Shown: positions 1,875-54,952, counted from the first letter of the stretch. The stretch: 64,000 nt of DNA from Candidatus Nealsonbacteria bacterium DGGOD1a (GCA_022530585.1 CP092821.1:753931-817930), one strand, 5' to 3'. Notes: generated by a model not told the origin, from the sequence alone. Made by a program: numbers and translations.

Positions 1875-1999
1875 TTATATATACTTATTGCATTTACTTT
1901 ACTCTTTTTAAGGCATTTTTTCAATCAGCATAAGGGGGTCTGGACTCCCTAGCGCGGTTGCGTCATTAATGTACTTGTAAAGGAATAACAAGCAAATTT

Positions 2000-3313: not shown

Positions 3314-3460
3314 TCAAAAAGCCAAAACCGCAAAAAATGCAGTTTTGGGCTTCTGAATACGGCACTCAACCGGTATGGCTTAACTGGGTAAGGGATATAC
3401 CACTCGGTCACCCGACTTAACATAGGCTGGCTGGCCATCTGGGGCGAAGTTGGAACATTA
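3313..3460 (-). repeat. copy 1 of a ~120-nt structured direct repeat (candidate small RNA with its own terminator), plus a weak tRNA-3'-end-like remnant at 3434-3460
   Basis: Aligns by eye with 4968-5088 (offset 1655 bp). Shared blocks are CTTCTGAATACGGC.CTCA.CCGGTATG.CTTAACTGGGTA and ACTCGGTCACCCGACTTA.CATAGGCT.GCTG, separated by a ~13-nt divergent patch. The flanking GGGGCGAAGTTGGAACA weakly resembles the tRNA-Gln 3' half. Confidence 0.6.
3321..3350 (-). terminator. intrinsic-terminator-like hairpin at the end of repeat copy 1; also sits 8 nt after the recombinase stop
   Basis: GCCAAAACCGCA-loop-TGCAGTTTTGGGC. Read on the minus strand it is followed by a U-run (the plus-strand AAAAA at 3316-3320). 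Confidence 0.5.
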
Positions 3461-3483
3461 TTCAAAAAATAATACGTTTTAAA

Positions 3484-4967: not shown

Positions 4968-5088
4968 ATTGAAAAGCCAAAAACCGCAAAAGATGCGGTT
5001 TTTGGCTTCTGAATACGGCGCTCAGCCGGTATGACTTAACTGGGTAGAGTAACTATGCGACTCGGTCACCCGACTTAGCATAGGCTAG
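4968..5088 (-). repeat. copy 2 of the ~120-nt structured direct repeat, immediately 3' of tRNA-Gln
   Basis: Same blocks as 3313-3433. Substitutions inside the predicted stems keep pairing (for example CGGU...GCCG in copy 1 versus CGGC...GCCG in copy 2), and the terminator stem is perfect in this copy. Confidence 0.6.
4976..5006 (-). terminator. intrinsic terminator of repeat copy 2 and the tRNA-Gln transcript
   Basis: Perfect 13-bp stem GCCAAAAACCGCA / TGCGGTTTTTGGC with a 5-nt loop, followed on the minus strand by UUUUC. Confidence 0.6.
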
Positions 5089-5159
5089 CTGCGGGACATG
5101 GATTCGAACCATGATAAACGGATTCAGAGTCCGTTGTCCTACCATTAGACGATCCCGCA
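5089..5159 (-). tRNA. tRNA-Gln (anticodon CUG)
   Basis: Hand-folded cloverleaf. 7-bp acceptor stem UGCGGGA/UCCCGCA with U1:A72 and G73 (typical of tRNA-Gln), D-loop AAUGGUA, anticodon stem ACGGA/UCCGU with loop CUCUGAA, T-arm CAUGG-UUCGAAU-CCAUG. No encoded CCA. Confidence 0.85.
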
Positions 5160-39859: not shown

Positions 39860-40270
39860 TTACTTGCCCTTTTTGACTCCGTACTTGGAACGCTCCTGCT
39901 TGCGTTTTTCCACTCCGGTGCAATCAAGCTTGCCGCGCACGATATGGTAGCGCACGCCCGGCAAATCTTTCACGCGGCCGCCGCGAATCAAAACGATGGA
40001 ATGTTCTTGCAATTTGTGGCCTTCGCCCGGGATATAAGCCGTGACTTCCATGCCGTTGGTGAGCTTCACCCTGGCCACCTTGCGCAACGCCGAATTCGGT
40101 TTCTTGGGAGTCGAAGTAAACACTTTGGTGCAAATGCCGCGCTTCAAAGGCGAACTGTAATTCCGGCCCCGATTTTTCAAAGTGTTGAAACCAAACGCCA
40201 GCGCCGGCGATTTGGTTTTATGCACGCGCTTCGTCCTTTTGTGTTTTATCAGTTGATGAATGGTTGCCAT
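39860..40270 (-). CDS. rpsL: 30S ribosomal protein S12
   Basis: 136 aa; [12 protein letters not shown] ... [19 protein letters not shown]. Confidence 0.95.
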
Positions 40271-40404
40271 CTTAACAAATTTAAAATTAAAAAATCAAAA
40301 TTAAAAATTTTGGAGTTATATATCCCCCAAACAGAATATAATTACCACATTAAAAAACAAAAGTCAAACTTTCCCGGAGCAATCCCTCACTGGGAACGGA
40401 ATTT

Positions 40405-40508
40405 CAAGGGTCTATCCCTCGTTAATGCGAGGGTTAGACCCTTGAAATTCACCCCGAATGCTTTCTTGCCAGGGTCTAACCCCTGCGATTACACAGGGGA
40501 TAGACCCT
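40405..40508. repeat. two tandem family H hairpins (GGGTCTA.CCC / GGG.TAGACCC)
   Basis: 40405-40444 is CAAGGGTCTATCCCTCG-TTAAT-GCGAGGGTTAGACCCTTG. 40471-40508 is AGGGTCTAACCCCTGCGATTACACAGGGGATAGACCCT, which matches the reverse complement of 8746-8783. Confidence 0.85.
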
Positions 40509-40571
40509 TAAAATACAAACCCCAGTGAGGGGTTACTTCCCGGAAACAACCGCTTCGCCAGATCTAAAATT

Positions 40572-40614
40572 AAAGGGGTCTAACCCTCGCGGTAACGAGG
40601 GATAGACCCCTTTA
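40572..40614 (-). terminator. family H hairpin acting as the probable terminator of the giant fibre gene
   Basis: AAAGGGGTCTAACCCTCG-CGGTAA-CGAGGGATAGACCCCTTT; on the minus strand it is followed by TTTAATTTTAG. A further 8-bp hairpin CGAAGGTT/AACCTTCG lies at 40626-40651, right after the stop. Confidence 0.5.
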
Positions 40615-40659
40615 ATTTTGTGGCGCGAAGGTTAGACCTTTGAAACCTTCGAAATCGCG

Positions 40660-43600
40660 TTAAAGGCTTTCCCCGCTTTCGGAGACATCTTCGCTCCCTC
40701 CGACAGATTCGGATATTTCTTCTTCGGATACTTCTTCTCCAGATACTTCTTCTCCAGATACTTCTTCCGAAACTGTATCGTCCGCGGTTTCCTCCTCTTC
40801 CAACTCTTCGCCGTCCGCGGCGGGATCAATCGTTTCTTGCGCCGCTTCGCTTGCCGCATCGCTTTTGTCATTTTCGTCTTCCGCCGCGCCTTCCTCGTCA
40901 TCGGCGCTATCGGAAGACCCCGTGTTCTCGACAGAATCGCCAGCGGGCGCAGGATCGCCTTCGTTTGAAGATTGGCCATTGTTATTTTCCAAATTTCCGG
41001 CGGCGGAACCTGTCTCCGGCGATTCGCTTGATCCCGTATTTTGGGCCGGTTCGTCGCCGCAAGCCCCCTCGGTTTTTTCCCAAACGCCATTCTCGATCCA
41101 AGTGCAATAGACTTCTCCGGTCGCTTTATCCACCATTTCCAATTGCTCGACCCGCGCGGTCTTGGCGCTGAAAGTTTCCACCACCACCCTTCGCAAGCTG
41201 GCCGCGCCATCATAAATCGCCAGCCCCAAAGATTCCAAGATATTTCTCACCTTGGCCAGCAAACTGTTTTCGGATTCTTCCGCCGAATCAACAGTCGTGG
41301 TGGAATTTATCAACCCTTGTTCGGTCAACTGCAAACTTATATTGTCAATCCGCGATTGCTGGGCTTTGGCCACTTCCAACAGATAGGCGGTGAATTTGGG
41401 ATAATCAAGCGACAGATAGCCGCTGGCGTTTTGGCCGACAAGTTCGGGCATCACCGCCTGCACTTCCTGCGCGATCATACCGATCTCGCGCTGGGCACCA
41501 AGATTCTTGGCCGCGTCCAGAGAAGTGTCCCAGTTATAATAAATGCCGCGCAGTTTGCTCAAATTTCCGATCACATCCATCTCGTCGGCAATCGATCCGA
41601 TATTGATTTTCAGCCGGATATCCGACGATGAATTGGTCAATACGCCGTCGGCATCCGAATACACCGCGCGATTGCCCTCGCCGGCAAGCGTCCCAATCCC
41701 CACATTGCCGGCCCCGTCGATGCGCAGGCGTTCGGCAATCGCCGCCCCGCCCGTTCTGGTCCAGAAAGTCAATGCCGATGTTTCACTCCCCGATGTTGCC
41801 GTGGTCAAAAGATTGCCAATCCGGCCCGTGAGCTCATCCGTCCCCGCGCTGTCTTCGGCGTAAAAATTAATTAACCCGCCAATGCCGTCCGCCGCCGTGC
41901 CCGAAGTTTGCCGCCGCAAGCGCAAAACCTCCGCCACGGTATCGGTGGTAGCGGGATTGATGGACAGATACCCGGCAATGCCATTCGTGGAACCGCCGTA
42001 AACACCAAAGCTGTTCGTGGAATTGCCGTAAACGCCATAGCCATTCGTGGAACCGCCGTAAACACCAACATTGTTCGCGGAAAGGCCATAAATGCCATAG
42101 TTGTTCGTAGAACTGCCATAAATGCCATAGCTGTTCGTGGAATTGCCGTAAACGCCAAAGCTGTTCGTGGAACCGCCACGGACACCATAGCTGTTCGTGG
42201 AAAAGAAATTACCCGCGTAATAGGTTCTTCCCCGAATCACATAGCGCAGGCGAACATCGGTATTCGTCCAGCTGGCGCCGTCGGCAGAAGTCGCGCCCAT
42301 ATTTGACGACGCATCCGAATCCAAAATAATGTTCCCGCCCGTCGGCGCGGCGCTATATTTCAACACCAGCCAGTATTTTGTCCCGCTTACCATCGTGTAG
42401 CTCGTGCCCATCGACAAGATTTGATAACTTGTTGTGAGCGTGCCGAATTTAACGCTATTGCCTGTCGCCAGCGCGGCCCCGGTTGGTTTTGACGGCGAAC
42501 CGCCGTCATCGGCGTAAATGTAGCCGGTGAGAGTTGCCGTGGTATTGGTAATATCCGCGCTTTCCTTAACCCTGACGGTGAAATCACCCATTGTGTGCGC
42601 GTCGCTGGCGGTAAATTGCACCGCCTGATACATTGTCGCCATTGTCGCGTCCGTGCCGGTGAACGCCGAACCGTCCTGCAAATCAGACGCGGTTTGCGAC
42701 GCGTTAATCGACGGATAGGTTTCCTGATTAACCGTCTGCGCCGAATTGATATTCCCGGCCACATCCAACTTATACCCCGCCGCCGGACTCGTCGTGCCGA
42801 TGCCGACATTGCCGTTACCTAAAAGAGTCATTACCGTTGTTTGCCCAGTAAAAGGCGCAACACCTCCATCATGTACCCTAAATTGCATATTATTTGCCGC
42901 ACCTCCACCGCCCTGAAGACCGTTTGAATAGATTGAATTATAGCGAACATCGGAGTCCGATCTTCCCATACGAATCTGTTCAACTGTTTGGCCAATAGTT
43001 GTTGCCGCGCGTGAATATATAGTTCCTACTACATCAAGTTTCTGCACTGGACTCGTCGTCCCAATCCCGACATTGCCGGAAGAATCAATGCGCAGGCGTT
43101 CGTCCCAGCTTCCCGCGTTTCTTGTCGCGAATGCCAGCGCGCCGCTTTGCGCTCCATCCGCATGGCTCACGCCCACCAAATCAATGCCGGCAACGGTTTG
43201 CACCGCGCCGCTTAAATTCGCCTGCCCGAAAGCAAGACCGATGGTATTGTTGGCGGTGGTATCGGTATTCACGATCCCCAGCAAACTCGCGTCGCCGATA
43301 TCCGTGCTGGAATTTGCCCCGGCAACATTAAACTTGTAATTCGGCGTTGTCGTGCCGATGCCCAGGCGGCTGTTGGTATCATCCCAATACATTCCGTCAA
43401 ACGCGGTCCACGCGCCGGCGTTGTTGTAGAGCAGTTGGCCTTCCGCGCCCGAAGGCAGAGCGCCGCCCGCGGTAAGATTGACGCCGTTCCAAACCAAATT
43501 GCCCGAAACATTGTAGAGCCTGTCGACAATCGTTTCCGGCGCGGTGGTCTGCGCCAACCGCAACCGCCCGTTCACATCCAACAACTCCGCCGGCGTTGTC

Positions 43601-46600
43601 GTGCCGATGCCAATATTGCCTTTCAATATTGTTTTAGTGATTGAATCATTACCCAGCACTACGCTGTCAGAACCGGCTCCCGTAGCATTATAACCAATAA
43701 CAATTTCATTAGTATCGCCATCGGCCAACGCTTTAGTGTTTGTTCCCAAGTAAATTGAATAACCAGATGTTTTATTATTATCAGAACCATCGGAAATATA
43801 TCTGCCGGCATTATTGCCAAAAGCCGAATTATACGCGCCAGTAGTGTTGTTTAGCAAGGAGTTGGTTCCAAGCGCAGTATTATAATATCCCGAAGTATTA
43901 TAGCGAAGGGAATAGCGTCCGACGGCAATGTTATTATAACCGGTAGTATTATCCCTAAGAGAACTGCTTCCTATACCAACAAGAAAAGATGACTGATTAA
44001 CATTCGACGCGGTGCTCCCTGTCGTTAAATTACCGGCACCTGACCCCAAAAAAAGATTATCGCCGCTGGGCGTAACTATTCCATTATTGCCATACTCAAA
44101 ATTGTGCAAAAATATTGCACCGTTTTTGGTGATCATCCCGAACTGGTTGGTATTGGTAGTGTTATCCAAATCCAAATTCCCCGCGGCAACATCCAACTTG
44201 TCCCCCGGCGCGGTCGTGCCGATGCCCAGCCTGTTGGTGGCATTATCCCAATACATTCCATCAAACGCGGTCCACGCGCCGGCGTTGTTGTAGAGCAGTT
44301 GGCCTTCCGCGCCCGAAGGCAGGGCGCCGCCCGCGGTGAGATTAACCCCGTTCCAAACCAAATTGCCCGAAACATTGTAGAGCTTGTCGGTTGTCGTTGC
44401 CGGCGCGGTGGTTTGCGCCAAGCGCAGGCGCCCATTCACATCCAGCAACTCCGCCGGACTCGTCGTGCCGATGCCGACATTACCGGTGCTTCCGTCCATT
44501 CTTACAATTTCGCTTGTTATACCCGAATCACCCCCACCAAAAAATGCCAGTGATCCCTTTCCGCTCGCGCTAATATAATTCCTAATCGCCCCATAAGAAA
44601 AGCCATTAACAACTTTAAATAACAATTGATTATACTCACCTACATTATTAATATCGGATTCCAAAGTTAAAAGCGTTGTATCTGTTACGGCGGTATTATT
44701 AACATGTAGCGTTGATCCCGGCGTCGTCGTCCCAATGCCGACATTGCCGCCTAATGGTTGTAAGGCAATATCCCGAGTAGTATTACCGCTGGTGCGCGCT
44801 TGTATCCAATAAGGGTAAGGGCTGGCATTTAACAACCCCATGGCTAGTTCAGATCCCTCTGATCTAAATATAGTTCCAGCAGTCGCACCCCAAGTTAAAG
44901 AAGCAGCTGTAGTACTAGGAGCTGCCACATGAAGCGTTGCGGCAGGACTCGTGATCCCGATACCCACATTGCCCTGAATTATCATTGACCCTGCCCCCGG
45001 ATCAGTACCAACATAACCATTACCCAAAGAAAGACCACCCGTAGAATTTAATCGCAATTTCTCCGTCCTTGATGTGCTTCCCAAAGCTGTGGTTTCAAAA
45101 CCAATATATACCCCGTGAGCGCTGGTAGTAAATGATTCGGCGGCATAACCAAATATCCCTGCGTTATTAGCCAACGCTGTGCCATCCCAACCGCCCCAGC
45201 CAAAGAACCCCATTCTGTCCCCAGTGCTCAAAGCCAAAGGTTCTGAAACAGTACCTCCATAACGGCGGAAAAAAAATTGCGATCCAGCTGAGGCGATATT
45301 GCTGTATGTATCAACCCCGATTTGCGCGGTGGTACCATTATTAACTACATGAAGTTGACCTAACGGTTCCGTCGTGCCGATGCCCAGGCGCGAGTTGGTA
45401 TCATCCCAATACAAGCCGGAAAACGCGGTCCACGCGCCGGCGTTGTTGTAGAGCAGTTGGCCTTCCGCGCCCGAAGGCAAAGCGCCGCCCGCGGTAAGAT
45501 TGACGCCGTTCCAAACCAAATTGCCCGAAACATTGTAGAGCCTGTCGACAATCGTTTCCGGCGCGGTGGTCTGCGCCAACCGCAACCGCCCGTTCACATC
45601 CAACATTTCCGCCGGACTGGTCGTCCCAATGCCAACATTTCCGCTATTATCTATTCTTAACCTTTCACTCATTGAGCCATCAGTTTTCCCAGTCTTCAAC
45701 ATAAATACAGTTCCGCCACCAGACTCTCTTAATGAAGTTAGCTCGGAAGAACCGTAACCCGCACCAGTTGTGGCGCTGTTAGTAAATTTCAGAGTCGTGG
45801 CTGTATTCGCTGTTGCAAAGTTAGAACGCAACTGGAGAATAGTCGTTTCTGCACCCGCAGCACCTCTAACAACCTCAAGTGGGTTCCCCGGACTCGTCGT
45901 CCCGATGCCGACATTGCCGGCACTCGAAATTCGCATTGCTTCGGTGCTACTGGCCGAAAAAGAAAGGTCTCCATTAGACTGACGAGCGATTATTACATCA
46001 GCCAATGCTGACCCCGAACCAAGCTGTAATTGGCCAGTTAAAAGTTGCGCACCAGCAAAACCCCCCAGCGACGAAGTCTTTGCCGTTATAGCGCCCACCA
46101 CATTTATGCTCCCCGTAGCACCTGCAGCGAACCCGGTACCGACCTGCAATGTATACTCCGGACTCGTCGTACCAATACCTAGCCGGCTGTTGGTATCATC
46201 CCAATGCAGGCCGGAGAACGCGGTCCACGCGCCGGCGTTGTTGTAGAGCAGTTGGCCTTCCGCGCCCGAAGGCAGGGCGCCGCCCGCGGTGAGATTGACG
46301 CCGTTCCAAACCAAATTGCCCGAAACATTGTAGAGCTTGTCGGCAATCGTTTCCGGCGCGGTGGTCTGCGCCAACCGCAACCGCCCGTTCACATCCAGCA
46401 ACTCCGCCGGACTCGTCGTGCCGATGCCGACATTACCGAGATTATCTATGGTCATTCTTGTCGCAGCACTTTCACCGTTGTTTCGTGTGCCAAATTTCAA
46501 ACCAAAACTATAATCTCCATCTGTCGCGTTAACTTTGTATCCTCTAATATAAGGAGCGCCGTCCAAGAAAGACCCGCCGCTAGTATATTTTCCAGTAAAA

Positions 46601-49600
46601 GTAATCATCCCGCCAACACCAGCGGCGTAAGCCGTATCATCGCTCGCAACAATACTTGAACCGCTCGCGCCACTGGTCACCGTAGCGTGAGAATCAAGCC
46701 TACCAAGGGGTCCCGTCGTGCCAATGCCCACATTGCCGGTACTTGAAATTCTCATCCATTCTGTATTACCAGCATACAATTTAAAATCACCCGAAGCATA
46801 TGTGCTCCCAACTTGAAAACCATTAGAACCTATCCCCATAACGCCAGATGAATTTAAGTAGGCACCACCTCCCGTAGCATAAACAGCGGCAGAAGCCATA
46901 ATAGCTCCCACTACATCTAATTCACGTGTCGGTGCCGTCGTGCCGATGCCCACTCTTCCCGCGAAGGTGGAAGTGGCGCTGGCGTTAAATGTGCCGTTCA
47001 CATCCAGCGTGTATCCCGGCGCGGTCGTCCCGATACCTACATTGCCGGTGCTCGGGTCAAACACAATGCCCGCGGTTGAGGTGGCATTCCCGACACGGAA
47101 CCCTCCGTTCACATCCAGCGTGTATCCCGGCGCAATCGTCCCGATACCGACATTGCCCGTACTATCGATTCGTACTTGTTCCACCCCCTTAGGCAAGAAA
47201 CTTATATATCCGTCTGTTGCTGAACTATGTGTTTTAAGGCTCAATTTATTATAACCTTGCGCAGTCAATTCATTATTTACATCACTGCCAATATAAGTAT
47301 TTACTGTGTTGTAATACACTTTATTCGTACTACCCCCCACTCTAACATCTCCGACTACCTGTAAAGCTGTGACCGGCGTCGTCGTCCCGATACCCACTCT
47401 TCCCGCGAAGGTGGAAGTGGCACTGGCGTTAAATGTGCCGTTCACATCCAATGTGTATCCGGGACTGGTCGTGCCGATCCCCACATTGCCGGAACTGTCA
47501 ATGCGCACCTGTTCCGTATTGTTTGACACAAGAGAAAAATAACCATTCGCCGCAAGATTTCCAACTTTGAGATTTGTTAAAACACCGCTCCCAGAGTTTG
47601 TATAAACACTTCCCGTTGTTCTTATAGTCCCAGCGACATCCAACGCTTGGCTTGGCGTTGTCGTGCCGATGCCCAGCCGGCTGTTTTCGTCATCCCAATA
47701 CATTCCGTTAAACGCGGTCCACGCGCCGTTGTTGTTGTAGAGCAGTTGGCCTTCGGTACCGACGGGCAAAGTGCCGCCCGCGGTAAGATTGACGCCGTTC
47801 CAAACCAAATTGCCCGAAACATTGTAGAGCTTGTTGGCGATATCCGCGGGCGCGGTGGTCTGCGCCAAGCGCAACCGCCCGTTCACATCCAACAGCTCCG
47901 CCGGACTGGTTGTTCCAACCCCGAAATAACCGGCGGTAACATATGTATTTCCGGTTCCGTTGGGCGTAATGGCAATACCGCCATTTAAAACCGTGGTTGT
48001 AATGCTTGGCGTTGAAATTCCGTCCGATAAAATCACCGGCGAATTATCGGTAGTTCTAAATGTCTTTTCTCCCGTAAGAATAATATTGCCTTTAAGACGA
48101 ATCTGCCCCCCGCCGGACGGCGTCGGATTAAGTTCGATATCTCCGTCACCGGTAGTTTGTAAAATTAAATTTTGGTCGATATCGGCCGAAACCACAACAC
48201 TGTCGGCCAAATCGGTTTGCAATACTTTTTGCCCATCCACATAAATAGAGCCCGGTCCGACATATATGCTTTCCCAAAAATTTGTTGGGGAGCCAAGGGA
48301 ATAAGTGTCATCGGCCGACGGTACGATATTGCCTGATATAGCCATGTTTCCGGCAACATCAAGCTTTTCCGCCGGACTCGCTGTCCCGATGCCCACATTG
48401 CCGGTGCTCGGGTCAAACACAATGCCCGCGGTTGAAGTGGCATTGCCCGCCCGGAACCCGCCGTTCACATCCAAAGTGTATCCCGGGCTGGCCGTACTAA
48501 TGCCCACATTACCGCTACTATTTTGGATATATAACCTATCTGCCGCTCCAGCATAAAGGCTCAAATCTTTTGCCGCTGTAGTACCAACAGCTATGGCTGA
48601 CCCTGATGCCGAAAGAACATAATTTCCATTGACTCTATAATTAGAGGAGTTTGTTGTTCCACTAACATCAAGCGCATACCCCGGACTCGTCGTGCCGATA
48701 CCTAACCGGCTGTTGGTATCATCCCAATGCAGGCCGGAGAACGCGGTCCACGCGCCGGCGTTGTTGTAGAGCAGTTGGCCTTCCGCGCCCGAAGGCAGGG
48801 CGCCGCCCGCGGTGAGGTTAACGCCGTTCCATAAGAGGTTGCCCGAAACATTGTAGAGCTTGTCGGCAATCGTTTCCGGCGCGGTGGTCTGCGCCAACCG
48901 CAACCGCCCATTCACATCCAACAACTCCACCGGACTCGTCGTGCCAATCCCCACATTGCCGGCACTATTGATAGTTACACCTGAAGATAATGAACCCGCC
49001 GTCCCAAGGTACATTCTGTCATCAAGATTATAATAAAATATATTTCCTCTTGCTATGACATCTTTGTCACCAAATTGAATACCCGCAACACCAGCCGTCC
49101 CAGCGCTAGAACCTTCACCTGCAAGTATTGCAAATATAGAATTAGAATCAGCTGTAGCATTACTTTGGAATATACCAACTTGACTTCCAAGAGTCGGAAT
49201 AGTGCCTGAAGTTAAAACCGCATGGAATGGGCGTTGTGGCGCAGTTGTTCCAACACCAACATTGCCATTGTTCAAAACCACCAAGCCTGTTCCGGACGAA
49301 CCCCCGATCTGCGCGACGGTTGAGGTGGAAGTATCCGCCCCGACCACATGCAATCTCGAAGACGGGCTCGTCGTGCCGATGCCCACATTGCCAGTGCTAT
49401 CAATTCTCATTCCCTCCACCAAACTTCCAGAAGAATTGCCATAAGATAATTGGAGATAACCTGCCGGATTGCCGGATGTAGAGTTTTCCTTGCGGCCCGC
49501 AATCGCGCCGAAACCGGCCAGAGTAGTCCCAAAATAAGATCCACCCATAGTTAACGAACCGCCTTTATTGATACCCATGGCGCCGTTGGAAGTTAACAAC

Positions 49601-50217
49601 GCGGTTCCCCATGAATCGGTAACTTGGTTTTGGCCGTTAACATGCAACAGGCTTAGGGGTGCGCCCGGATAGCTGTTCGGCGCGGCCGTGCCGATACCCA
49701 CATTGCCGGAAGGATCAATGCGCAGGCGTTCGGCCCAGCTTCCCGCGTTCCTTGTTGAAAACGCCAGCGCGCCGCTTTGCGCTCCATCCGCATGGCTCAC
49801 GCCCACCAAATCAATGCCGGCGACGGTTTGCACCGCGCCGCTTAAATTCGCCTGCCCGAAAGCAAGGCCAATGGTATTGTTGGCGGTGGTATCGGTATTC
49901 ACGATCCCCAGCAAACTCGCGTCGCCCACATCCGTGCTGGAATTTGCCCCGGCAACATTAAACTTGTAATTCGGCGTCGTCGTCCCAATCCCCAGACGGC
50001 TGGTGGCATCGTCCCAATACATTCCGTCAAACGCGGTCCACGCGCCGGCGTTGTTGTAGAGCAGTTGACCCTCCGCGCCCGAAGGCAAAGCGCCGCCCGC
50101 GGTGAGATTAACGCCGTTCCAAACCAAATTGCCCGAAACATTGTAGAGCTTGTCGGCAATCGTTTCCGGCGCGGTGGTCTGCGCCAACCGCAACCGCCCG
50201 TTCACACGCCGTTCCAA
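40660..50217 (-). CDS. C-terminal 3,185-codon part of a giant tail-fibre-like surface protein (GNVGIGTT-repeat fibre, Hep_Hag-like stretch, S74 intramolecular chaperone domain, acidic tail)
   Basis: There is no ATG start: the first start-like codon is the TTG at 50217, inside the duplicated 95-bp segment. The ORF contains 7 copies of the ~95-aa module ...AELLDVNGRLRLAQTTAPETIADKLYNVSGNLVWNGVNLTAGGALPSGAEGQLLYNNAGAWTAF..WDD..SRLGIGTT.P. It ends with the SSDIRLKINIG...GMIAQEVQAVMPELV signature. Confidence 0.85.
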   Translation of the reverse strand: MERRVNGRLRLAQTTAPETIADKLYNVSGNLVWNGVNLTAGGALPSGAEGQLLYNNAGAWTAFDGMYWDDATSRLGIGTTTPNYKFNVAGANSSTDVGDASLLGIVNTDTTANNTIGLAFGQANLSGAVQTVAGIDLVGVSHADGAQSGALAFSTRNAGSWAERLRIDPSGNVGIGTAAPNSYPGAPLSLLHVNGQNQVTDSWGTALLTSNGAMGINKGGSLTMGGSYFGTTLAGFGAIAGRKENSTSGNPAGYLQLSYGNSSGSLVEGMRIDSTGNVGIGTTSPSSRLHVVGADTSTSTVAQIGGSSGTGLVVLNNGNVGVGTTAPQRPFHAVLTSGTIPTLGSQVGIFQSNATADSNSIFAILAGEGSSAGTAGVAGIQFGDKDVIARGNIFYYNLDDRMYLGTAGSLSSGVTINSAGNVGIGTTSPVELLDVNGRLRLAQTTAPETIADKLYNVSGNLLWNGVNLTAGGALPSGAEGQLLYNNAGAWTAFSGLHWDDTNSRLGIGTTSPGYALDVSGTTNSSNYRVNGNYVLSASGSAIAVGTTAAKDLSLYAGAADRLYIQNSSGNVGISTASPGYTLDVNGGFRAGNATSTAGIVFDPSTGNVGIGTASPAEKLDVAGNMAISGNIVPSADDTYSLGSPTNFWESIYVGPGSIYVDGQKVLQTDLADSVVVSADIDQNLILQTTGDGDIELNPTPSGGGQIRLKGNIILTGEKTFRTTDNSPVILSDGISTPSITTTVLNGGIAITPNGTGNTYVTAGYFGVGTTSPAELLDVNGRLRLAQTTAPADIANKLYNVSGNLVWNGVNLTAGGTLPVGTEGQLLYNNNGAWTAFNGMYWDDENSRLGIGTTTPSQALDVAGTIRTTGSVYTNSGSGVLTNLKVGNLAANGYFSLVSNNTEQVRIDSSGNVGIGTTSPGYTLDVNGTFNASATSTFAGRVGIGTTTPVTALQVVGDVRVGGSTNKVYYNTVNTYIGSDVNNELTAQGYNKLSLKTHSSATDGYISFLPKGVEQVRIDSTGNVGIGTIAPGYTLDVNGGFRVGNATSTAGIVFDPSTGNVGIGTTAPGYTLDVNGTFNASATSTFAGRVGIGTTAPTRELDVVGAIMASAAVYATGGGAYLNSSGVMGIGSNGFQVGSTYASGDFKLYAGNTEWMRISSTGNVGIGTTGPLGRLDSHATVTSGASGSSIVASDDTAYAAGVGGMITFTGKYTSGGSFLDGAPYIRGYKVNATDGDYSFGLKFGTRNNGESAATRMTIDNLGNVGIGTTSPAELLDVNGRLRLAQTTAPETIADKLYNVSGNLVWNGVNLTAGGALPSGAEGQLLYNNAGAWTAFSGLHWDDTNSRLGIGTTSPEYTLQVGTGFAAGATGSINVVGAITAKTSSLGGFAGAQLLTGQLQLGSGSALADVIIARQSNGDLSFSASSTEAMRISSAGNVGIGTTSPGNPLEVVRGAAGAETTILQLRSNFATANTATTLKFTNSATTGAGYGSSELTSLRESGGGTVFMLKTGKTDGSMSERLRIDNSGNVGIGTTSPAEMLDVNGRLRLAQTTAPETIVDRLYNVSGNLVWNGVNLTAGGALPSGAEGQLLYNNAGAWTAFSGLYWDDTNSRLGIGTTEPLGQLHVVNNGTTAQIGVDTYSNIASAGSQFFFRRYGGTVSEPLALSTGDRMGFFGWGGWDGTALANNAGIFGYAAESFTTSAHGVYIGFETTALGSTSRTEKLRLNSTGGLSLGNGYVGTDPGAGSMIIQGNVGIGITSPAATLHVAAPSTTAASLTWGATAGTIFRSEGSELAMGLLNASPYPYWIQARTSGNTTRDIALQPLGGNVGIGTTTPGSTLHVNNTAVTDTTLLTLESDINNVGEYNQLLFKVVNGFSYGAIRNYISASGKGSLAFFGGGDSGITSEIVRMDGSTGNVGIGTTSPAELLDVNGRLRLAQTTAPATTTDKLYNVSGNLVWNGVNLTAGGALPSGAEGQLLYNNAGAWTAFDGMYWDNATNRLGIGTTAPGDKLDVAAGNLDLDNTTNTNQFGMITKNGAIFLHNFEYGNNGIVTPSGDNLFLGSGAGNLTTGSTASNVNQSSFLVGIGSSSLRDNTTGYNNIAVGRYSLRYNTSGYYNTALGTNSLLNNTTGAYNSAFGNNAGRYISDGSDNNKTSGYSIYLGTNTKALADGDTNEIVIGYNATGAGSDSVVLGNDSITKTILKGNIGIGTTTPAELLDVNGRLRLAQTTAPETIVDRLYNVSGNLVWNGVNLTAGGALPSGAEGQLLYNNAGAWTAFDGMYWDDTNSRLGIGTTTPNYKFNVAGANSSTDIGDASLLGIVNTDTTANNTIGLAFGQANLSGAVQTVAGIDLVGVSHADGAQSGALAFATRNAGSWDERLRIDSSGNVGIGTTSPVQKLDVVGTIYSRAATTIGQTVEQIRMGRSDSDVRYNSIYSNGLQGGGGAANNMQFRVHDGGVAPFTGQTTVMTLLGNGNVGIGTTSPAAGYKLDVAGNINSAQTVNQETYPSINASQTASDLQDGSAFTGTDATMATMYQAVQFTASDAHTMGDFTVRVKESADITNTTATLTGYIYADDGGSPSKPTGAALATGNSVKFGTLTTSYQILSMGTSYTMVSGTKYWLVLKYSAAPTGGNIILDSDASSNMGATSADGASWTNTDVRLRYVIRGRTYYAGNFFSTNSYGVRGGSTNSFGVYGNSTNSYGIYGSSTNNYGIYGLSANNVGVYGGSTNGYGVYGNSTNSFGVYGGSTNGIAGYLSINPATTDTVAEVLRLRRQTSGTAADGIGGLINFYAEDSAGTDELTGRIGNLLTTATSGSETSALTFWTRTGGAAIAERLRIDGAGNVGIGTLAGEGNRAVYSDADGVLTNSSSDIRLKINIGSIADEMDVIGNLSKLRGIYYNWDTSLDAAKNLGAQREIGMIAQEVQAVMPELVGQNASGYLSLDYPKFTAYLLEVAKAQQSRIDNISLQLTEQGLINSTTTVDSAEESENSLLAKVRNILESLGLAIYDGAASLRRVVVETFSAKTARVEQLEMVDKATGEVYCTWIENGVWEKTEGACGDEPAQNTGSSESPETGSAAGNLENNNGQSSNEGDPAPAGDSVENTGSSDSADDEEGAAEDENDKSDAASEAAQETIDPAADGEELEEEETADDTVSEEVSGEEVSGEEVSEEEISESVGGSEDVSESGESL
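41329..41628 (-). other. peptidase-S74 / intramolecular-chaperone auto-cleavage domain coding region
   Basis: SSDIRLKINIGSIADEMDVIGNLSKLRGIYYNWDTSLDAAKNLGAQREIGMIAQEVQAVMPELVGQNASGYLSLDYPKFTAYLLEVAKAQQSRI. This matches the S-D-x-R-x-K ... G-x-I-A-Q-E-V ... P-E-L-V pattern of endosialidase and tail-spike C-terminal chaperones. Confidence 0.8.
41978..42207 (-). repeat. ~9.5 tandem 24-bp units encoding the octapeptide repeat (S/N)STN(S/G/N)(Y/F)GVYG
   Basis: Protein: STNSYGVRGGSTNSFGVYGNSTNSYGIYGSSTNNYGIYGLSANNVGVYGGSTNGYGVYGNSTNSFGVYGGSTNG. The plus-strand DNA unit is GTTCGTGGAA..GCCGTAAACGCC.AAGCT. Confidence 0.85.
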
Positions 50218-50300
50218 ACCAAATTGCCCGAAACATTGTAGAGCTTGTCGGCAATCGTTTCCGGCGCGGTGGTCTGCGCCAACCGCAACCGCCCGTTCAC
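50111..50300 (-). repeat. perfect 95-bp tandem duplication (50111-50205 = 50206-50300) at the junction of the two giant ORFs
   Basis: Both copies read ACGCCGTTCCAAACCAAATTGCCCGAAACATTGTAGAGCTTGTCGGCAATCGTTTCCGGCGCGGTGGTCTGCGCCAACCGCAACCGCCCGTTCAC. AC dinucleotide microhomology lies at the boundaries. Confidence 0.95.
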
Positions 50301-53300
50301 ATCCAACAGCTCCGCCGGACTCGTCGTGCCGATGCCCACATTGCCGGTGCTATCAACACGCACCCGTTCATTGCCGGCGGTGCTTAAAGTAATATAGCCA
50401 TCAGTATGGGTTGCCGCATTGCCAGATGACAGAGTTAAAGGATAGGCACCGGTGGCGGTGGCAGAACCAAAGCTATATTTAGCTCTATTAAAATTGGTCA
50501 TATAAACCCCCCTGTTCGTTCCGCTCATCACCAGATCATTAGTTACTATATAAGCATTAGAACTTATCGTACCAGCAACATCTAATTTCACAGAAGGCGC
50601 CGTCGTGCCGATGCCGACATTGCCGGTGCTTGGGTCAAACACAATGCCCGCGGTTGAAGTGGCGTTCCCGACGCGAAACCCGCCGTTCACATCCAGCGTG
50701 TATCCCGGACTCGTCGTGCCGATGCCGACATTGCCGGCACTATTAATTCTCATACGCTCAGCATTGCCTGCCGCAACACCTATCGTTGGCGTAGTGACAA
50801 AAGAAATCAAAGTCGGAGCTGGAAGCGACCCACCCACCGTACCACCAAAATAAAGTTCATCTCTTGACGCATCGCGACTATCAGCGGATAAAACGGAAAT
50901 ATTGTAAGTATTGTCATAAGAAGGAATTGCAATACGCCCAAGTTTTCTAACATTTGCCGATAAAGTAGTCGTATTCAAATCCGCCCCAATTAAAATGCCA
51001 CCGGTAGCGCTTCCAGATTGCAAAGTAGTAATACCAAGCACATTTAACTTTGAAGAGGGTTCCGTCGTCCCGATGCCCACATTGCCGGTGCTCGGGTCAA
51101 ACACAATGCCCGCGGTTGAAGTGGCGTTCCCGACGCGGAAACCGCCGTTCACATCCAGCGCATACCCGGGACTGGTCGTGCCAATGCCCAGGCGCGAGTT
51201 GGTATCATCCCAATACATTCCGGAGAACGCGGTCCACGCGCCATTGTTGTTGTAGAGCAGTTGGCCTTCCGCGCCCGAAGGCAGGGCGCCGCCCGCGGTG
51301 AGATTCACGCCGTTCCAAACCAAATTGCCCGAAACATTATAGAGCTTGTCGGCAATCGTTTCCGGCGCGGTGGTCTGCGCCAACCGCAACCGCCCGTTCA
51401 CATCCAGCAACTCCGCCGGACTCGTCGTCCCGATCCCGACATTGCCGGAATTTGATACGATAAATTTCACGGCATTGGCCGAATTATCCAATCTGAAAAT
51501 GCTTTTGGCGACCGCCATCGCGGCGCCGGCGTTATCGTTTGAAAAAACAGAATCCACCGTTAACGACGAATTGCTTGCTATCGAAACAACGGTTTTGGTT
51601 TCTCCACCAACGGTAATGTTGTCTCCGATACCAACTTGCGTTGTAAAATATGAACTCGTTCCGGCAACAATAGCGGAGCCCGCGCTGGTCGCCACCGTTC
51701 CGGAAGCGTTAAAACCGGCGGGAGCTTTAGCCGTCAATCTTGATAATTTTGTTGAAATCCCCCCAATGCCGATACTGCCGTCATCGCCAATAAATAATCT
51801 GGAAGTATTTGCGGTTGATCCGCTTGGAGTGGTGTAAATATTATACGAAGTTCCATGGCCGGCGGCAGTCCAATCTTCAGTAGTTTTGGCAATGGCAAAC
51901 GCGCCCCGGCCGTAAGCGGAACCATCCCAGCCGTAGAAATTATGATAACCCAGCTCCGCGCCGGTAAGCGCCGCGCCATCTATATCGCTTGGGTTCCCTC
52001 GTTTATATGTGTTAAGACCATTGGCATAATTACTCTGCGTCCAAAAATATAAATTGAGATATCCGTTGGAATTTTTTGATCCGAATTTTCCTCTGGAAGC
52101 GACTTGAAGCTCGCCGCCGCTCGTGATCTTGAATCTTTCGTTGTCTTCGCCGTCGTCAGCCACAAACAAATCCGCGCTGTCAAAATAAGCGGTCAGGCCG
52201 GAAGCGGTTTCCCCCAAATATCTGCCGGAAATATAAAGATGGGTATCGTCGGTAATTGAAGCAACTCCGAATGTTTCCGTCCCGATTTTAATCGCGTCCC
52301 CTTCCTCCAATTCGCTGGTGAACAATGTTCCGGTTCCCGTCACCAACGCTTGCCCGGTCCCTATCGCCACCGTGCCGGTAAGAGTGGAAAATGATTTTCC
52401 CTTAAGGTTGAGAATCGTCTTCGGACTGCTCGTGCCAATCCCCACATTGCCGGCGAAATAGCCATTGCCGTCGCGGTCAACGAAAAACTTCTGAACTCCG
52501 GCGACGCCAACGCCCAAAAGCGGCGCGCCGGCAATGGCGCTGGAAGGATTTATCAAAACGCTGGATTGGGCAAAATCGGTCGACAGCGGCTGGTAAGTGA
52601 ACACCGCCTGCCCCGAAGTTGACATTCCGGAAGTGTTGATGTTGGCGACATAGATATCGTTGAAGCGGTGCGCGGCGTCGCCCAAACTCGCGCCCAAATC
52701 GGTTGCCGGAGAAATATCCCCTGAAGATGATATTCCGGCCAGCACCGCTTTGCCGTCGGAATCAATCGAAGACACCACATTACCCCCCGAATCCGCGATC
52801 TGGAATTGGTAGGTGCCGGCGTCATCGCCAAGAACCACCCGGGCGCCGCCGCCGGTGGTGAGTTTCAAAAGATTCGCGGTTTCATTGTCGATCGATTCCG
52901 CGCCGGCGCCGAAATTCAGCCGGCCGCCGGAAACCGTGATGTCGCCGGACAACCGGATGTCGCCGGTCGCGTCAACCGCGTATGTCCCATCGGCCAGTTT
53001 GGCCGCGGTGGCGCCGTTCACCGCGTATAATGCTTGCGTCCCATCGGCGATATCCACCGTGGTCGTGCCGTCGGTAATTTGAGTTTTTCCGCCCGCGCCG
53101 GCTTGCAAAATTAAATCTTTGCTCGCGCCCGTGGTAATCCGGCCGGCATCGACAAACGACAGTTGGCCGCTTTCCAAAGTCGTGGACGCCACATCCAGCT
53201 TGCCCGCGGCGTAGATGTCATACCATCTTTGAGACGAGCTTCCCAAATCATAACCCAATGTTGAATCAACGAACGGAACGATGCTGGCGGCGTTGTCCGT

Positions 53301-54707
53301 ATCGCCCACCACCAGATTGCCGGTGCCGTTGGGCGCGAAAACCAGATTGCCGTTGTCGGTGGTGTAGAATGTGCCGCCGCTCGTCAAAGTGATGTCGCCG
53401 TCCAATACCAGATTGCCGGTTGAATCAATATAGTTGGTATCGGTATGAAATTGCACCGCGCCCGTGCCGTTGGGATTGACGAGCAAATTCGTGTCGGCAT
53501 CGCGGGTGGAAATGGTGGAAGACTTGATGGCGATGTTGTCGGCTTGCAAAGCAACCCCCGATCCGCCTTGGATCACGGACAATACCGCGGCCGTGGTGGT
53601 CGCCGAAAAAGCCGCCGCGCCCGAATAGGTCTGGCTGCCGGACACCGTGAAATTGCCGCGCACGACCGCGTCGCCGCCGGCGCTAACCGTGAAATTGCCG
53701 CTCCCGATATCCAGCGAACCGCCGGTGATCGCGCCATGGCGGTTCACCGTGAAACTGCCGCCGCCGATATCCAAAGTGTTGGCGCCCAAATTATCCGGCG
53801 GATTGTAACTCTGTCCCAGCGAATAATTGGGCCGGTCCGAATCCATCTGGCGCAGAATTTGATTAACTCGCGCTTTGGTGCCCTCATCGGCGACAACGGT
53901 ATTGACTTGAGTTTGTATTTCTTTGGTATGAATGGTTTGAATCTCCTTGGTTTGCACTTCCTTAGTCTGTATTTCTTTTTCCGGATAAATGTTTTGGACG
54001 ATTGGCGCCGGCTGATTTTCAGAGGGTCTAACCCTCTGATCATCTTCCAAAAATTCTTGATCGTTGGAAATTTGGCCATTCATCGACAATTGATCATTGC
54101 CCGGAGAATCTTCTATTCCCAGCCAGCGGCGCGCCGTGTCGCGAATATGGTTTTTGATTCCGTCGAAAAATGAGGACAACGACGCTTGCCCCGCCTGCGC
54201 CAAATTTTTAGTGGAATAAAGCCCGTTTTGCAAAGATCCGGCCGCGGCGCTTCCGGCCGCGGAAACTCCGCTTCCGGTCGAATGAACGCCGCGCGCCAAA
54301 GACCGCGCCGCGGTTTCGCCCAACCCCGCGGTTTGTTTGGCCGAATTTTCAACAAGGCCGCCCGCGGCAACGGCAACGGCGGTCGCGTTATTTTCTGTTT
54401 TTACCGCGAAATTTTGAGCAAAATCAACCGCGGCTGATTTCGCGTCCGAAACAAACTCCAGCGCGGCGGGAAACACCTCGTTTTCAACCGCGGCAATTCC
54501 TTGGACAAACTGGCGCGGCGCCATTTGCGCGGCATCCCGGAAAAAATCGGCAAAACCAAAAGCGCGGTCCCGCAAGGAATCGGACGGATAAAATTCAACC
54601 GCGGCCCAAACGATTTGATACGCGCCCGCGCAACACAAAAATACCAAAAATGCGAACGCAATTTTCGTGAAAATTTGCGGTTTTTGATTATTTGGCTTTC
54701 TCTCCAT
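50202..54707 (-). CDS. N-terminal 1,501-codon part of the giant tail-fibre-like surface protein (signal-anchor, Ala/Ser-rich linker, KEIQT repeats, beta-helix-like segments, GNVGIGTT repeats)
   Basis: ATG at 54707. MERKPNNQKPQ plus a hydrophobic helix IFTKIAFAFLVFLCCAGAYQIVWAAV. It ends inside a conserved module (...LYNVSGNLVWNGV*) only because of the 95-bp duplication. Confidence 0.85.
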   Translation of the reverse strand: MERKPNNQKPQIFTKIAFAFLVFLCCAGAYQIVWAAVEFYPSDSLRDRAFGFADFFRDAAQMAPRQFVQGIAAVENEVFPAALEFVSDAKSAAVDFAQNFAVKTENNATAVAVAAGGLVENSAKQTAGLGETAARSLARGVHSTGSGVSAAGSAAAGSLQNGLYSTKNLAQAGQASLSSFFDGIKNHIRDTARRWLGIEDSPGNDQLSMNGQISNDQEFLEDDQRVRPSENQPAPIVQNIYPEKEIQTKEVQTKEIQTIHTKEIQTQVNTVVADEGTKARVNQILRQMDSDRPNYSLGQSYNPPDNLGANTLDIGGGSFTVNRHGAITGGSLDIGSGNFTVSAGGDAVVRGNFTVSGSQTYSGAAAFSATTTAAVLSVIQGGSGVALQADNIAIKSSTISTRDADTNLLVNPNGTGAVQFHTDTNYIDSTGNLVLDGDITLTSGGTFYTTDNGNLVFAPNGTGNLVVGDTDNAASIVPFVDSTLGYDLGSSSQRWYDIYAAGKLDVASTTLESGQLSFVDAGRITTGASKDLILQAGAGGKTQITDGTTTVDIADGTQALYAVNGATAAKLADGTYAVDATGDIRLSGDITVSGGRLNFGAGAESIDNETANLLKLTTGGGARVVLGDDAGTYQFQIADSGGNVVSSIDSDGKAVLAGISSSGDISPATDLGASLGDAAHRFNDIYVANINTSGMSTSGQAVFTYQPLSTDFAQSSVLINPSSAIAGAPLLGVGVAGVQKFFVDRDGNGYFAGNVGIGTSSPKTILNLKGKSFSTLTGTVAIGTGQALVTGTGTLFTSELEEGDAIKIGTETFGVASITDDTHLYISGRYLGETASGLTAYFDSADLFVADDGEDNERFKITSGGELQVASRGKFGSKNSNGYLNLYFWTQSNYANGLNTYKRGNPSDIDGAALTGAELGYHNFYGWDGSAYGRGAFAIAKTTEDWTAAGHGTSYNIYTTPSGSTANTSRLFIGDDGSIGIGGISTKLSRLTAKAPAGFNASGTVATSAGSAIVAGTSSYFTTQVGIGDNITVGGETKTVVSIASNSSLTVDSVFSNDNAGAAMAVAKSIFRLDNSANAVKFIVSNSGNVGIGTTSPAELLDVNGRLRLAQTTAPETIADKLYNVSGNLVWNGVNLTAGGALPSGAEGQLLYNNNGAWTAFSGMYWDDTNSRLGIGTTSPGYALDVNGGFRVGNATSTAGIVFDPSTGNVGIGTTEPSSKLNVLGITTLQSGSATGGILIGADLNTTTLSANVRKLGRIAIPSYDNTYNISVLSADSRDASRDELYFGGTVGGSLPAPTLISFVTTPTIGVAAGNAERMRINSAGNVGIGTTSPGYTLDVNGGFRVGNATSTAGIVFDPSTGNVGIGTTAPSVKLDVAGTISSNAYIVTNDLVMSGTNRGVYMTNFNRAKYSFGSATATGAYPLTLSSGNAATHTDGYITLSTAGNERVRVDSTGNVGIGTTSPAELLDVNGRLRLAQTTAPETIADKLYNVSGNLVWNGV

Positions 54708-54872
54708 AACCCATTTCCAAGCACAACTTTCCTTATCTTAAATTATACTCTAAATACGCCGCGCGCGCCACTGTGGATAACCGGCGATTTTAAAGCGGAA
54801 AAACAAACGCTTTTCACCGCCGAGCCGTTACCGGCAAAACAACCTCCCGCGACCCCTGTAATCAAAAAGGCC

Positions 54873-54911
54873 AAAAGGGTCCGACCCTTTTTAAAAGGGT
54901 CGGACCCTTTT
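54873..54911. terminator. 39-nt perfect palindrome; a bidirectional terminator-like hairpin between the M50 protease gene and the giant gene
   Basis: AAAAGGGTCCGACCCTTTT-T-AAAAGGGTCGGACCCTTTT; 40 nt downstream of the M50 stop. Confidence 0.55.
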
Positions 54912-54952
54912 GATTAACAAAACGCGCATCCCGGCGAACGATTGCGGCGCAA

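Follow-up and report, generated by a model that had tools for sequence, protein, structure and literature searches.

A giant mosaic fibre gene in the probable chromosome of a Nealsonbacteria epibiont, with repeated modules and capping loops as likely seams of exchange

The window, a 64-kb stretch of DNA from a 1.16-Mb genome, is most likely part of the chromosome of Ca. Nealsonbacteria DGGOD1a, a CPR epibiont of Methanothrix. It probably carries one intact, giant, mosaic fibre gene (40660..54707, minus strand, from the ORF list and translations), in which exchange takes place at module and capping-loop seams and whose apparent frame break is artefactual. All features given below lie on the same strand. 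An identical matching locus is present on contigs of the DGG/OR benzene-degrading culture. The gene is located upstream of rpsL, with the ribosomal operon genes for S12, S7, EF-G and EF-Tu downstream; two terminator-like hairpins between its stop codon and rpsL (40518..40588) are no more than matches of a consensus scan. The phage context suggested by the term 'fibre gene' was rejected, as this is a cellular gene adjoining a ribosomal-protein operon and no phage genes surround it. A DNA-level search of a phage collection with the fibre gene gave no match. At the protein level, matches to PHROG tail fibres were obtained.

In the window the gene is split into two ORFs of 1501 aa (50202-54707) and 3185 aa (40660-50217). 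The frame is broken by an exact tandem duplication of a 95-nt unit (50111..50300, units at 50111-50205 and 50206-50300). When one unit is taken out, a single uninterrupted ORF of 4,650 codons results, which differs from the intact 4,650-aa gene of JGI contig Ga0310376_1000018 by the sole change L1927V. The duplication was sought in two other assemblies, JGI and JARDUI, and is absent from both. The original prediction attributed it to exchange between modules; this origin was not supported, since a duplication of 795 nt or more would be expected from unequal exchange, and the junction (GGAACGGCGT|GTGAACGGG) has a microhomology of 1 nt only. Modules M2 and M5 have an exact 100-nt repeat in common, whose final 95 nt coincide precisely with the duplicated unit, and ABySS contigs were joined to close the source genome (supplement of the source paper). 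Together these fit an untrimmed k-1 contig overlap, where k=96 is deduced from the unit and the source paper gives no k values. The duplication is probably such an assembly-finishing artefact and not biology.

The gene product is probably a giant, homotrimeric, cell-surface fibre, predicted to consist of an N-terminal membrane anchor, a shaft of ~4,000 residues and a C-terminal S74 chaperone/autoprotease. The hydrophobic signal/anchor segment at aa 14-35 (FTKIAFAFLVFLCCAGAYQIVW; 54603..54668), with basic residues before it, was read from the translation, and a Pfam scan of the first 1,501 aa found nothing. A Peptidase_S74 intramolecular chaperone/autoprotease domain is encoded at 41437..41625 (Pfam PF13884, E 4.8e-12, 46.4 bits against a cut-off of 22), with the catalytic motif SDIRLK, of the SDxxxK type, at aa 4330-4335 (41608-41625). 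Past the S74 cleavage site follows an acidic, low-complexity C-terminal tail (40663..41055; E 17.6%, S 12.8%, D 7.6% by translation and composition). Near the distal fibre end, repeat search and translation revealed a run of 30-nt tandem repeats encoding the decapeptide STNSYGVYGx (41954..42233). The shaft would be made of beta-helix units parted by ~37 GNVGIGTTxPxxxL capping loops: the protein contains 37 motifs of the G[IV]G[TI]..P...L type, and the 28 DNA matches of the capping-loop motif GGCAATGTNGGNATYGGNACGAC in a motif scan span 41687..52451, with none elsewhere in the window.

Eight modules are distributed along the gene, each of them predicted to be one capped beta-helix unit of 92 residues, eight copies per protein. 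Every module coordinate of the original prediction was confirmed. The sequence ACSCCGTTCC occurs at 43481, 44345 (ACCCCG variant), 45503, 46298, 47792, 48821, 50111, 50206 and 51307, with 0.3 matches expected in shuffled sequences, and a 38-nt module-specific pattern has exactly 8 matches in the 64-kb window, all within the fibre gene. Repeat search returned one family of 300-nt copies with spacings of 864, 1158, 795, 1494, 1029, 1290 and 95+1101 nt. That the spacings are multiples of 3 is true but constitutes no extra feature; it is automatic for copies that code for the same peptide within a single ORF. The modules are M1 (aa 1088-1179, 51171..51446; repeat search and alignment), M2 (aa 1455-1546, 49975..50345; repeat search), which holds the 95-bp duplication, M3 (aa 1885-1976, 48685..48960; module alignment), M4 (aa 2228-2319, 47656..47931), the most divergent copy with 80-85% pairwise identity to the others, M5 (aa 2726-2817, 46162..46437), which has the 100-nt exact repeat in common with M2, M6 (aa 2991-3082, 45367..45642), M7 (aa 3377-3468, 44209..44484) and M8 (aa 3665-3756, 43345..43620). 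Pairwise identity over the 276-nt module core is 80-94% (mean 88%; mean dS 0.36, mean dN 0.07), and the longest exact inter-module repeats reach only 80-125 nt. The eight copies are thus in place, but the description 'near-identical' was overstated, and 'similar' is the better word. The module edges are sharp, and just outside the two GIGTT motifs identity falls to random.

The cassettes between modules are 173-406 aa long and differ in content. They had been described as divergent; not all of them are unrelated, as C1, C3 and C4 have sub-blocks in common and C2 and C8 share a 0.6-kb block. The double occurrence of the latter was borne out, its landmark AACTTGTAAT being found at 43331 and 49961 only. 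Block A, which starts with M2 and continues through ...TTTPNYKFNVAG...ERLRID, covers aa 1455-1642 (49687..50345); block B, starting with M8, covers aa 3665-3852 (43057..43620) and, in repaired coordinates, is 6,630 nt away from block A (both from repeat search). The two blocks have a nucleotide identity of 93.4% and a dS of 0.205. A 300-nt repeat pair 6630 nt apart is 94% identical.

The modules are mosaics of one another. Of 276 informative site pairs among the eight copies, 149 violate the four-gamete test; Rmin over the 276 nt is 10 or more, and a PHI-like permutation gave p=0.012. A rather unlikely alternative is that the modules are a repeated structural domain, produced by recent internal duplication and kept by purifying selection, with recombination incidental and not diversifying. 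It is favoured by a dN/dS of ~0.2 among modules, by three population assemblies that show no length variation, and by many unrelated giant proteins in which 2-9 copies of the unit recur at scattered places. However, it leaves the four-gamete failures unexplained.

The differences among the three assemblies over ~35 kb are all inside the fibre gene. Within modules, all 23 of 23 differences carry an allele found in another module. At 13 of 14 sites, an M2 tract of ~160 nt has the same base as the second copy of the 0.6-kb block, and a 7-nt patch of M3 at 48817-48838, in which NLLW replaces NLVW, is specific to the window. These conversion-like patches vary between samples of one culture. They could be consensus or polishing artefacts caused by mis-mapped reads of other modules; in the source genome SNPs were edited to the majority (supplement of the source paper).

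The 'rapid' length variation of the original prediction was not seen: the three population assemblies, which are perhaps not fully independent, are collinear and contain no length variant. A dedicated high-frequency variation system, with rapid length or antigenic variation and the 95-bp duplication as an ON/OFF frameshift switch, is improbable. Homologues do carry frame-breaking lesions (a 10-nt deletion in the last module of L094, an IS insertion in L100), short-read contigs break at the borders of the fibre gene, and the patches just described differ between samples. Against such a system stand the collinear architecture and the duplication itself, which bears an exact k-1 overlap signature and is absent elsewhere; modules of ~88% identity with exact runs of at most 125 nt would also be a poor substrate for frequent exchange. 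Moreover, the window has no silent cassette archive, no site-specific recombinase or reverse transcriptase was found with the gene among the window ORFs scanned, and the substitutions are not confined to adenines.

Mis-assembly of a repetitive region as the source of the repeat architecture, of the cassette order or of both is highly improbable. The ABySS contig joining has likely left at least one join artefact (the 95-bp duplication), and the JARDUI assembly has an 82-N gap in cassette C4. Nevertheless, the three assemblies agree base for base outside the small patches, typical reads exceed the exact repeats (at most 125 nt) in length, the repair leaves an uninterrupted ORF over the full length, and this type of architecture recurs in homologues of unrelated samples.

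Exchange at the seams of one intact gene is also argued for by comparison between Nealsonbacteria lineages. The syntenic orthologue L097 has 2,409 aa and 2 modules. One of these links the counterpart of window aa 651-1178 (96.5% nucleotide identity) to that of aa 3081-3223 (97.7%), such that the upstream flank of M1 and the downstream flank of M6 are joined via a single module. At most a few nucleotides from the GIGTT motifs, identity between L097 and the window drops from 93-98% to the random level. The dS of shared fibre segments is 0.07-0.22, compared to 0.69-1.34 for S12, S7, EF-G and EF-Tu. Neither the M1-flank/M6-flank junction nor module-bounded segments with a dS 6-15 times below that of housekeeping genes between species are explained by a merely repeated domain. 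For segments at ≥90% identity, 25 of 31 ends lie ≤8 aa from a capping motif against 14% expected (p=3e-16), a statistic that is inflated by the bias of BLAST segment ends towards conserved motifs. Selection for foldable junctions, without homology-driven exchange, could give the same breakpoint pattern. The homologue L101, from the same culture, contains the same sub-blocks in shuffled order, which the repeated-domain alternative likewise leaves unexplained; L101 could be a paralogue, or a gene of a second co-resident Nealsonbacteria species, instead of an allele. In L098 five modules are drawn from two clades. Orthologues measure 2,409, ~2,500, 3,547+ and 4,650 aa, with module copy numbers of 2, 4-5 and 8, and the module matches 25,294 cluster representatives, many of them 2-7 kaa long.

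The proposal that modules serve as in-frame exchange seams, together with the short GNVGIGTT-coding motifs, is borne out by the module mosaicism, the alleles shared with other modules, L097 and L101. The recombination idea is thus supported on an evolutionary scale by sequence comparison, and the evidence points to mosaic evolution between lineages, not to a fast programmed switch. Homologous recombination at module or capping-loop seams would give in-frame products, because the modules share 276 nt, and each capping loop ~23 conserved nucleotides, in the same frame. According to the sequences, past events comprised gene conversion among modules, the loss, gain and re-ordering of whole inter-motif cassettes, and the import of kilobase segments between Nealsonbacteria lineages otherwise only ~80% identical. 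The mechanism may be RecA-type homologous recombination, the fibre may mediate attachment to the Methanothrix host, and cassette content may tune specificity. It is suggested, tentatively and with well under an even chance, that the fibre is a host-recognition and attachment organelle whose cassettes are swapped between co-resident Nealsonbacteria via module/capping-motif recombination, re-tuning host range. If so, host range (e.g. for different Methanothrix strains) would be re-tuned in the way that phages swap tail-fibre segments, and the gene would represent a cellular equivalent of receptor-binding-protein mosaicism in phages, as well as the first candidate for a specificity determinant in a CPR-archaeon symbiosis.

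In phage tail-fibre genes, as probably in the gene described here, fibre segments are exchanged horizontally at conserved junction sequences. The fibre described here resembles S74-terminated phage fibres and spikes (T5 pb1, K1F endosialidase) in its S74 intramolecular chaperone and its PHROG tail-fibre matches; unlike phage tail-fibre genes, the Nealsonbacteria gene is chromosomal and cellular and adjoins rpsL. With Periscope proteins and other repeat-length-variable surface proteins it shares highly similar intragenic DNA repeats and big differences in orthologue length. However, assignment to a Periscope-type tandem array of near-identical repeats was rejected: copy number does differ, but the modules are dispersed (spacings 795-1494 nt). 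With differing cassettes between dispersed modules, exchange alters content as well as length. As in Neisseria pilE/pilS, Borrelia vlsE and Anaplasma msp2, conserved segments surround variable cassettes and conversion tracts are visible; unlike in those systems, the visible donors are either further modules of this gene or alleles from other lineages. Silent-cassette antigenic variation was rejected within the 64-kb window, where no module or capping-motif match was found outside the gene. A diversity-generating retroelement target was also rejected, as the differences among modules and assemblies involve all bases; no reverse transcriptase domain was found among the subset of window ORFs scanned.

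The closest characterised relatives are the MAT trimeric fibres of Bdellovibrio. A sequence search of the PDB gave matches to these fibres only (single-sequence E 6.5e-9). The module profile matched Bd2133 (8OND) at 2.8e-11 and the capped beta-helix domain of Bd3182 (8OJN) at 1.6e-6, in the latter case end-to-end over the whole module, and the capping motifs match the capping loops of both solved chains position by position in the alignment. An AF2 model of the module (pLDDT 88) was compared with the PDB by Foldseek; the best 12 matches are all MAT fibres, although weak (E ~0.03, TM 0.27). As in the S74 subgroup of MAT fibres (Bd3182), beta-helix shaft units are bounded by the same capping-loop motif, the C-terminus is an S74 chaperone/protease with SDxxxK, and a secreted or anchored N-terminus is predicted. 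Members of that subgroup have a signal peptide followed by a conserved ~130-aa beta-rich N-terminal domain; in the fibre protein here, an N-terminal hydrophobic segment is visible in the translation. The MAT family has been called mosaic, with ends 'swapped out in evolution' (Caulton et al. 2024, PMC10769870). In contrast, the mosaicism found here is not limited to the tip: it affects the shaft over its full length and is seen at capping motifs and across species, and a single capped unit is employed at eight scattered positions of the shaft. The protein is also ~5 times longer (4,650 aa against roughly 800-1,150), and the window holds a single such gene where the Bdellovibrio family numbers 21. 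Like Bdellovibrio bacteriovorus, the owner of the fibre is a bacterium that attaches to another cell, but here the host is an archaeon.

The giant gene is the largest gene in the window, where it occupies positions 40660-54707 on the minus strand. The repeat search grouped 300-nt copies at 43336, 44200, 45358, 46153, 47647, 48676, 49966 and 51162, with a partial copy at 50061, into one family; it also returned a 300-nt pair, 6,630 nt apart and 94% identical. The eight modules (M1-M8) of the original prediction were confirmed, and both of its sequence landmarks lie where it had placed them. The spacings of the modules are divisible by three because all copies share one reading frame. A 38-nt module-specific pattern matched eight times in the window scan, every time within the giant gene. 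The modules had been described as nearly the same in nucleotide sequence; they are clearly related, but the 276-nt core shows a pairwise identity of 80-94% (mean 88%), with a mean dS of 0.36 and a mean dN of 0.07. The longest exact runs between modules measure 80-125 nt, and module similarity begins and ends sharply at the two bounding GIGTT motifs. Other repeats in the gene are a tandem array with a 30-nt period at window 41954-42233 (decapeptide STNS(Y/F)GVYG(G/N), about nine units), near the distal fibre end and upstream of the S74 domain, and short KEIQT/KEVQT peptide repeats at window 53900-54000 (aa ~240-265), in the N-terminal stalk before the beta-rich shaft.

In the window the gene is split into ORFs of 1,501 and 3,185 aa by an exact 95-nt tandem duplication at 50111-50300, with the junction sequence GGAACGGCGT followed by GTGAACGGGCGG. 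The duplication is absent from the other two assemblies of this population, JGI Ga0310376_1000018 and JARDUI010000018 (DGG-1A metagenome), and the JGI contig carries a single 4,650-aa gene that differs from the repaired window gene at one residue only. No record of the 1,501-aa ORF was found in public assemblies, which is consistent with a frame break peculiar to one assembly. The duplication had been attributed to exchange between modules; this is not supported, as the smallest duplication expected from unequal exchange is 795 nt long. Slipped-strand origin was also rejected, since the microhomology at the junction is 1 nt only and the internal GAACGG repeats have a spacing of 83 nt instead of 95. 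M2 and M5 share a maximal exact repeat of 100 nt, and its final 95 nt are precisely the duplicated unit, with coincident 3' ends. De Bruijn contigs overlap by k-1 nucleotides and break at shared (k-1)-mers, and k=96 is a common setting of ABySS. The genome was reported to be closed with ABySS 1.3.7 contigs of several k values, mapped onto a 5-contig MAG, and an in-house gap resolver. Two k=96 contigs joined untrimmed would give exactly the observed 95-nt duplication. The frame break is therefore probably non-biological, a finishing error in the published 'closed' genome that makes its largest gene look like a pseudogene, and since an untrimmed k=96 join fits the duplication, the giant gene is treated here as intact. 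A related gene on contig L094 (~83% nucleotide identity in the modules) has its frame broken by a 10-nt deletion, GGCAATT^CGGGGTC, in the last module (L094:7834-8175), a few bases from the position where the window duplication ends. The deletion may be a genuine lesion or an error of assembly.

Exchange among the modules is indicated by the four-gamete test, which was failed by 149 of the 276 pairs of 24 biallelic informative sites, by an Rmin of at least 10, and by a PHI-like permutation test (p=0.012). When the window is compared with the other two assemblies over ~35 kb, differences are confined to the giant gene. All 23 inter-assembly differences in modules carry an allele that other modules have at that position, and in JARDUI a tract of ~160 nt in M2/block A equals block B, 6.6 kb distant, at 13 of 14 differing sites. 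These allele-sharing differences and the M2 tract are conversion signatures, which consensus mis-mapping could mimic. The non-repeat N-terminal part at window 53163-53584 also differs between JARDUI and the window (24 differences in 420 nt); outside this part and the modules, the rest of the 35 kb is identical between the two. No paralogue of 53163-53584 exists within the window, and the homologue on contig L098 agrees with JARDUI at 12 of these 24 sites, blockwise. The pattern points to haplotypes that recombine or to a consensus built from mixed strains.

Comparison with other lineages shows clear inter-species mosaicism of the giant fibre gene. The syntenic orthologue (P0007/L097) comes from another culture, on a 300-kb contig where S12-S7-EF-G-EF-Tu follow directly downstream of it, and encodes a fibre of 2,409 aa with two modules. 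The S12, S7, EF-G and EF-Tu genes are 79-87% identical to those of L097 at the nucleotide level (dS 0.69-1.34). Four segments of the fibre are far closer to L097: aa 651-1178 (96.5%, dS 0.11), aa 1455-1642 (93.1%, dS 0.22), aa 3081-3223 (97.7%, dS 0.07) and aa 3934-4650 (96.1%, dS 0.09). At each boundary of a shared segment, identity is lost no more than a few bases from a GIGTT motif. A single L097 module links the flank upstream of M1 in the window to the cassette downstream of M6, which is the kind of in-frame, module-mediated junction that had been predicted. This junction module is a patchwork on a fine scale, with no single clean crossover found inside it. Strict concerted evolution, in which every window module would resemble the other window modules more than any foreign one, holds against L094-L096 but fails once L097, L098 and L100 are added; with these three included, the modules form two clades, in which the window copies interleave with those of L097. 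In L100 (syntenic orthologue of the same lineage as L097; ENA ERZ27315046) the gene (L100:6699-15202) is split by a DDE transposase, ORFs of 767 and 1,733 aa surrounding the oppositely oriented (IS4/IS5-like) transposase gene. Sample ERZ27315046 also holds a short contig, L012, with an S7 gene identical to that of the window. Homologues on L098 and L099 have 4-5 modules and another genomic context, and the N-terminal region of L098 is 97.5% identical to that of the window gene. L101, from the same DGG-1A metagenome, carries window sub-blocks at 88-97% identity in changed order. The culture was reported to contain two Nealsonbacteria ASVs with 16S identity of 91.2%, possibly with different Methanothrix hosts. 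Of 31 internal ends of shared segments (≥90% identity), 25 lie no more than 8 aa from a capping motif (GNVGIGTTxPxxxL) versus 14% expected (p=3e-16), a result somewhat inflated by the bias of BLAST ends to conserved motifs.

The proposed role of modules as in-frame recombination seams thus stands, and the general seams are the short capping motifs, beyond the eight long modules, a point the original prediction missed. Its tempo, like its account of the duplication, does not: the three assemblies of the population are collinear and give no support to rapid variation. No silent cassettes were found in the 64-kb window. A DGR was rejected as an explanation, since the substitutions are not adenine-specific; nothing DGR-like was seen at the window gene. 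Two contigs with homologues, L098 and L102 (ENA ERZ25039527), do have DGR components, the accessory protein bAvd and an RVT_1 reverse transcriptase, which follow the fibre gene at a distance of a few kb (L098:25837-28387 and L102:3398-7715), in L102 after an FGE-sulfatase/C-type-lectin-like ORF; the repeat search found no TR/VR pair.

The window is bacterial chromosome. Downstream of the giant gene, on the same strand, are the genes for S12, S7, EF-G, EF-Tu, S10, L3, L4 and more ribosomal proteins, then SecY; upstream are those for an M50 peptidase and a cation ATPase. Phage origin was rejected, as the phage collection gave no DNA match and the flanks consist of ribosomal and housekeeping genes. 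The flanking genes are identical on contigs of the OR/DGG-B methanogenic benzene-degrading culture. Papers on this culture describe Ca. Nealsonbacteria DGGOD1a, which lives as an epibiont on Methanothrix, and its closed genome of 1.16 Mb, the most probable source of the window; those on the organism name pili, holins and peptidoglycan-binding proteins and do not mention the giant gene. In older or other metagenomes, the short-read contigs of this organism (L006, L007, L008, L010-L014) end within ~100-260 nt of the giant-gene borders; because they stop there, the gene was never assembled from those data. A perfect hairpin with a 20-bp stem and a T run at window 54871-54913, between the M50 peptidase gene and the giant-gene start, is probably a strong terminator that sets the fibre gene apart as its own transcription unit. 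The G+C content is 51-55% in the giant gene (window 40000-54000) versus 44-49% in the flanks and a published genome mean of 45.8%; the high value may stem from Gly/Ala/Thr-rich composition or foreign ancestry. At window 66-4809, adjoining tRNA-Gln (5088-5159), a RadC-JAB/Dam-methyltransferase fusion ORF, a large serine recombinase and an HNH endonuclease ORF are clustered and may be a mobile-element remnant.

An exhaustive HMMER search matched the module to 25,294 protein cluster representatives, many of them proteins of 2-7 kaa with dozens of motif matches; several carry 2-9 dispersed full-length module copies. A word-indexed search with the module gave two fragments only, and the search of genome contigs gave only distant relatives (28-44% identity over the whole module, at most 63% over half), the source genome not being among the matches. 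With ~25,000 matching representatives, many of them giants, seam-guided mosaicism may be general to this class of very large, mostly unannotated proteins. The literature searched held no link of S74 fibres, or of the mosaic adhesive trimer (MAT) fibres of Bdellovibrio, to Patescibacteria. A MAT-like fibre of 4,650 aa is a concrete candidate determinant of attachment and specificity. Its segments move among co-cultured species, and these are reported to follow different variants of Methanothrix.

The giant gene is a MAT/tail-fibre-like S74 fibre gene in a CPR epibiont of an archaeon. Its product starts with basic residues followed by a hydrophobic anchor; the sole Pfam match, Peptidase_S74, lies near the C-terminus (catalytic motif SDIRLK at aa 4330), and the PHROGs matches are tail-fibre families. 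A sequence search of the PDB matched only the Bdellovibrio MAT fibres Bd2133, Bd3182, Bd1334 and Bd2439. A profile built from the module plus 26 diverse homologues matched Bd2133 at 2.8e-11 and aligned end-to-end with the C-terminal beta-helix domain of Bd3182 (1.6e-6). AF2 modelled the module with confidence on the profile alignment (pLDDT 88). The model, a lone extended chain, matched the PDB weakly, with MAT fibres in all top 12 places (E ~0.03). A single-sequence model of module plus cassette was uninformative (pLDDT 44). By analogy with MAT fibres, we infer that the giant fibre would trimerise, be displayed at the surface and bind the host. The Bd3182 domain was described as a trimeric beta-helix with a surface cleft between two 'capping loops' that carry a conserved motif (Caulton et al. 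2024, PMC10769870). The GNVGIGTTxPxxxL motif of the giant gene aligns with these capping loops, and the giant fibre is five times longer than the characterised MAT/S74 fibres.
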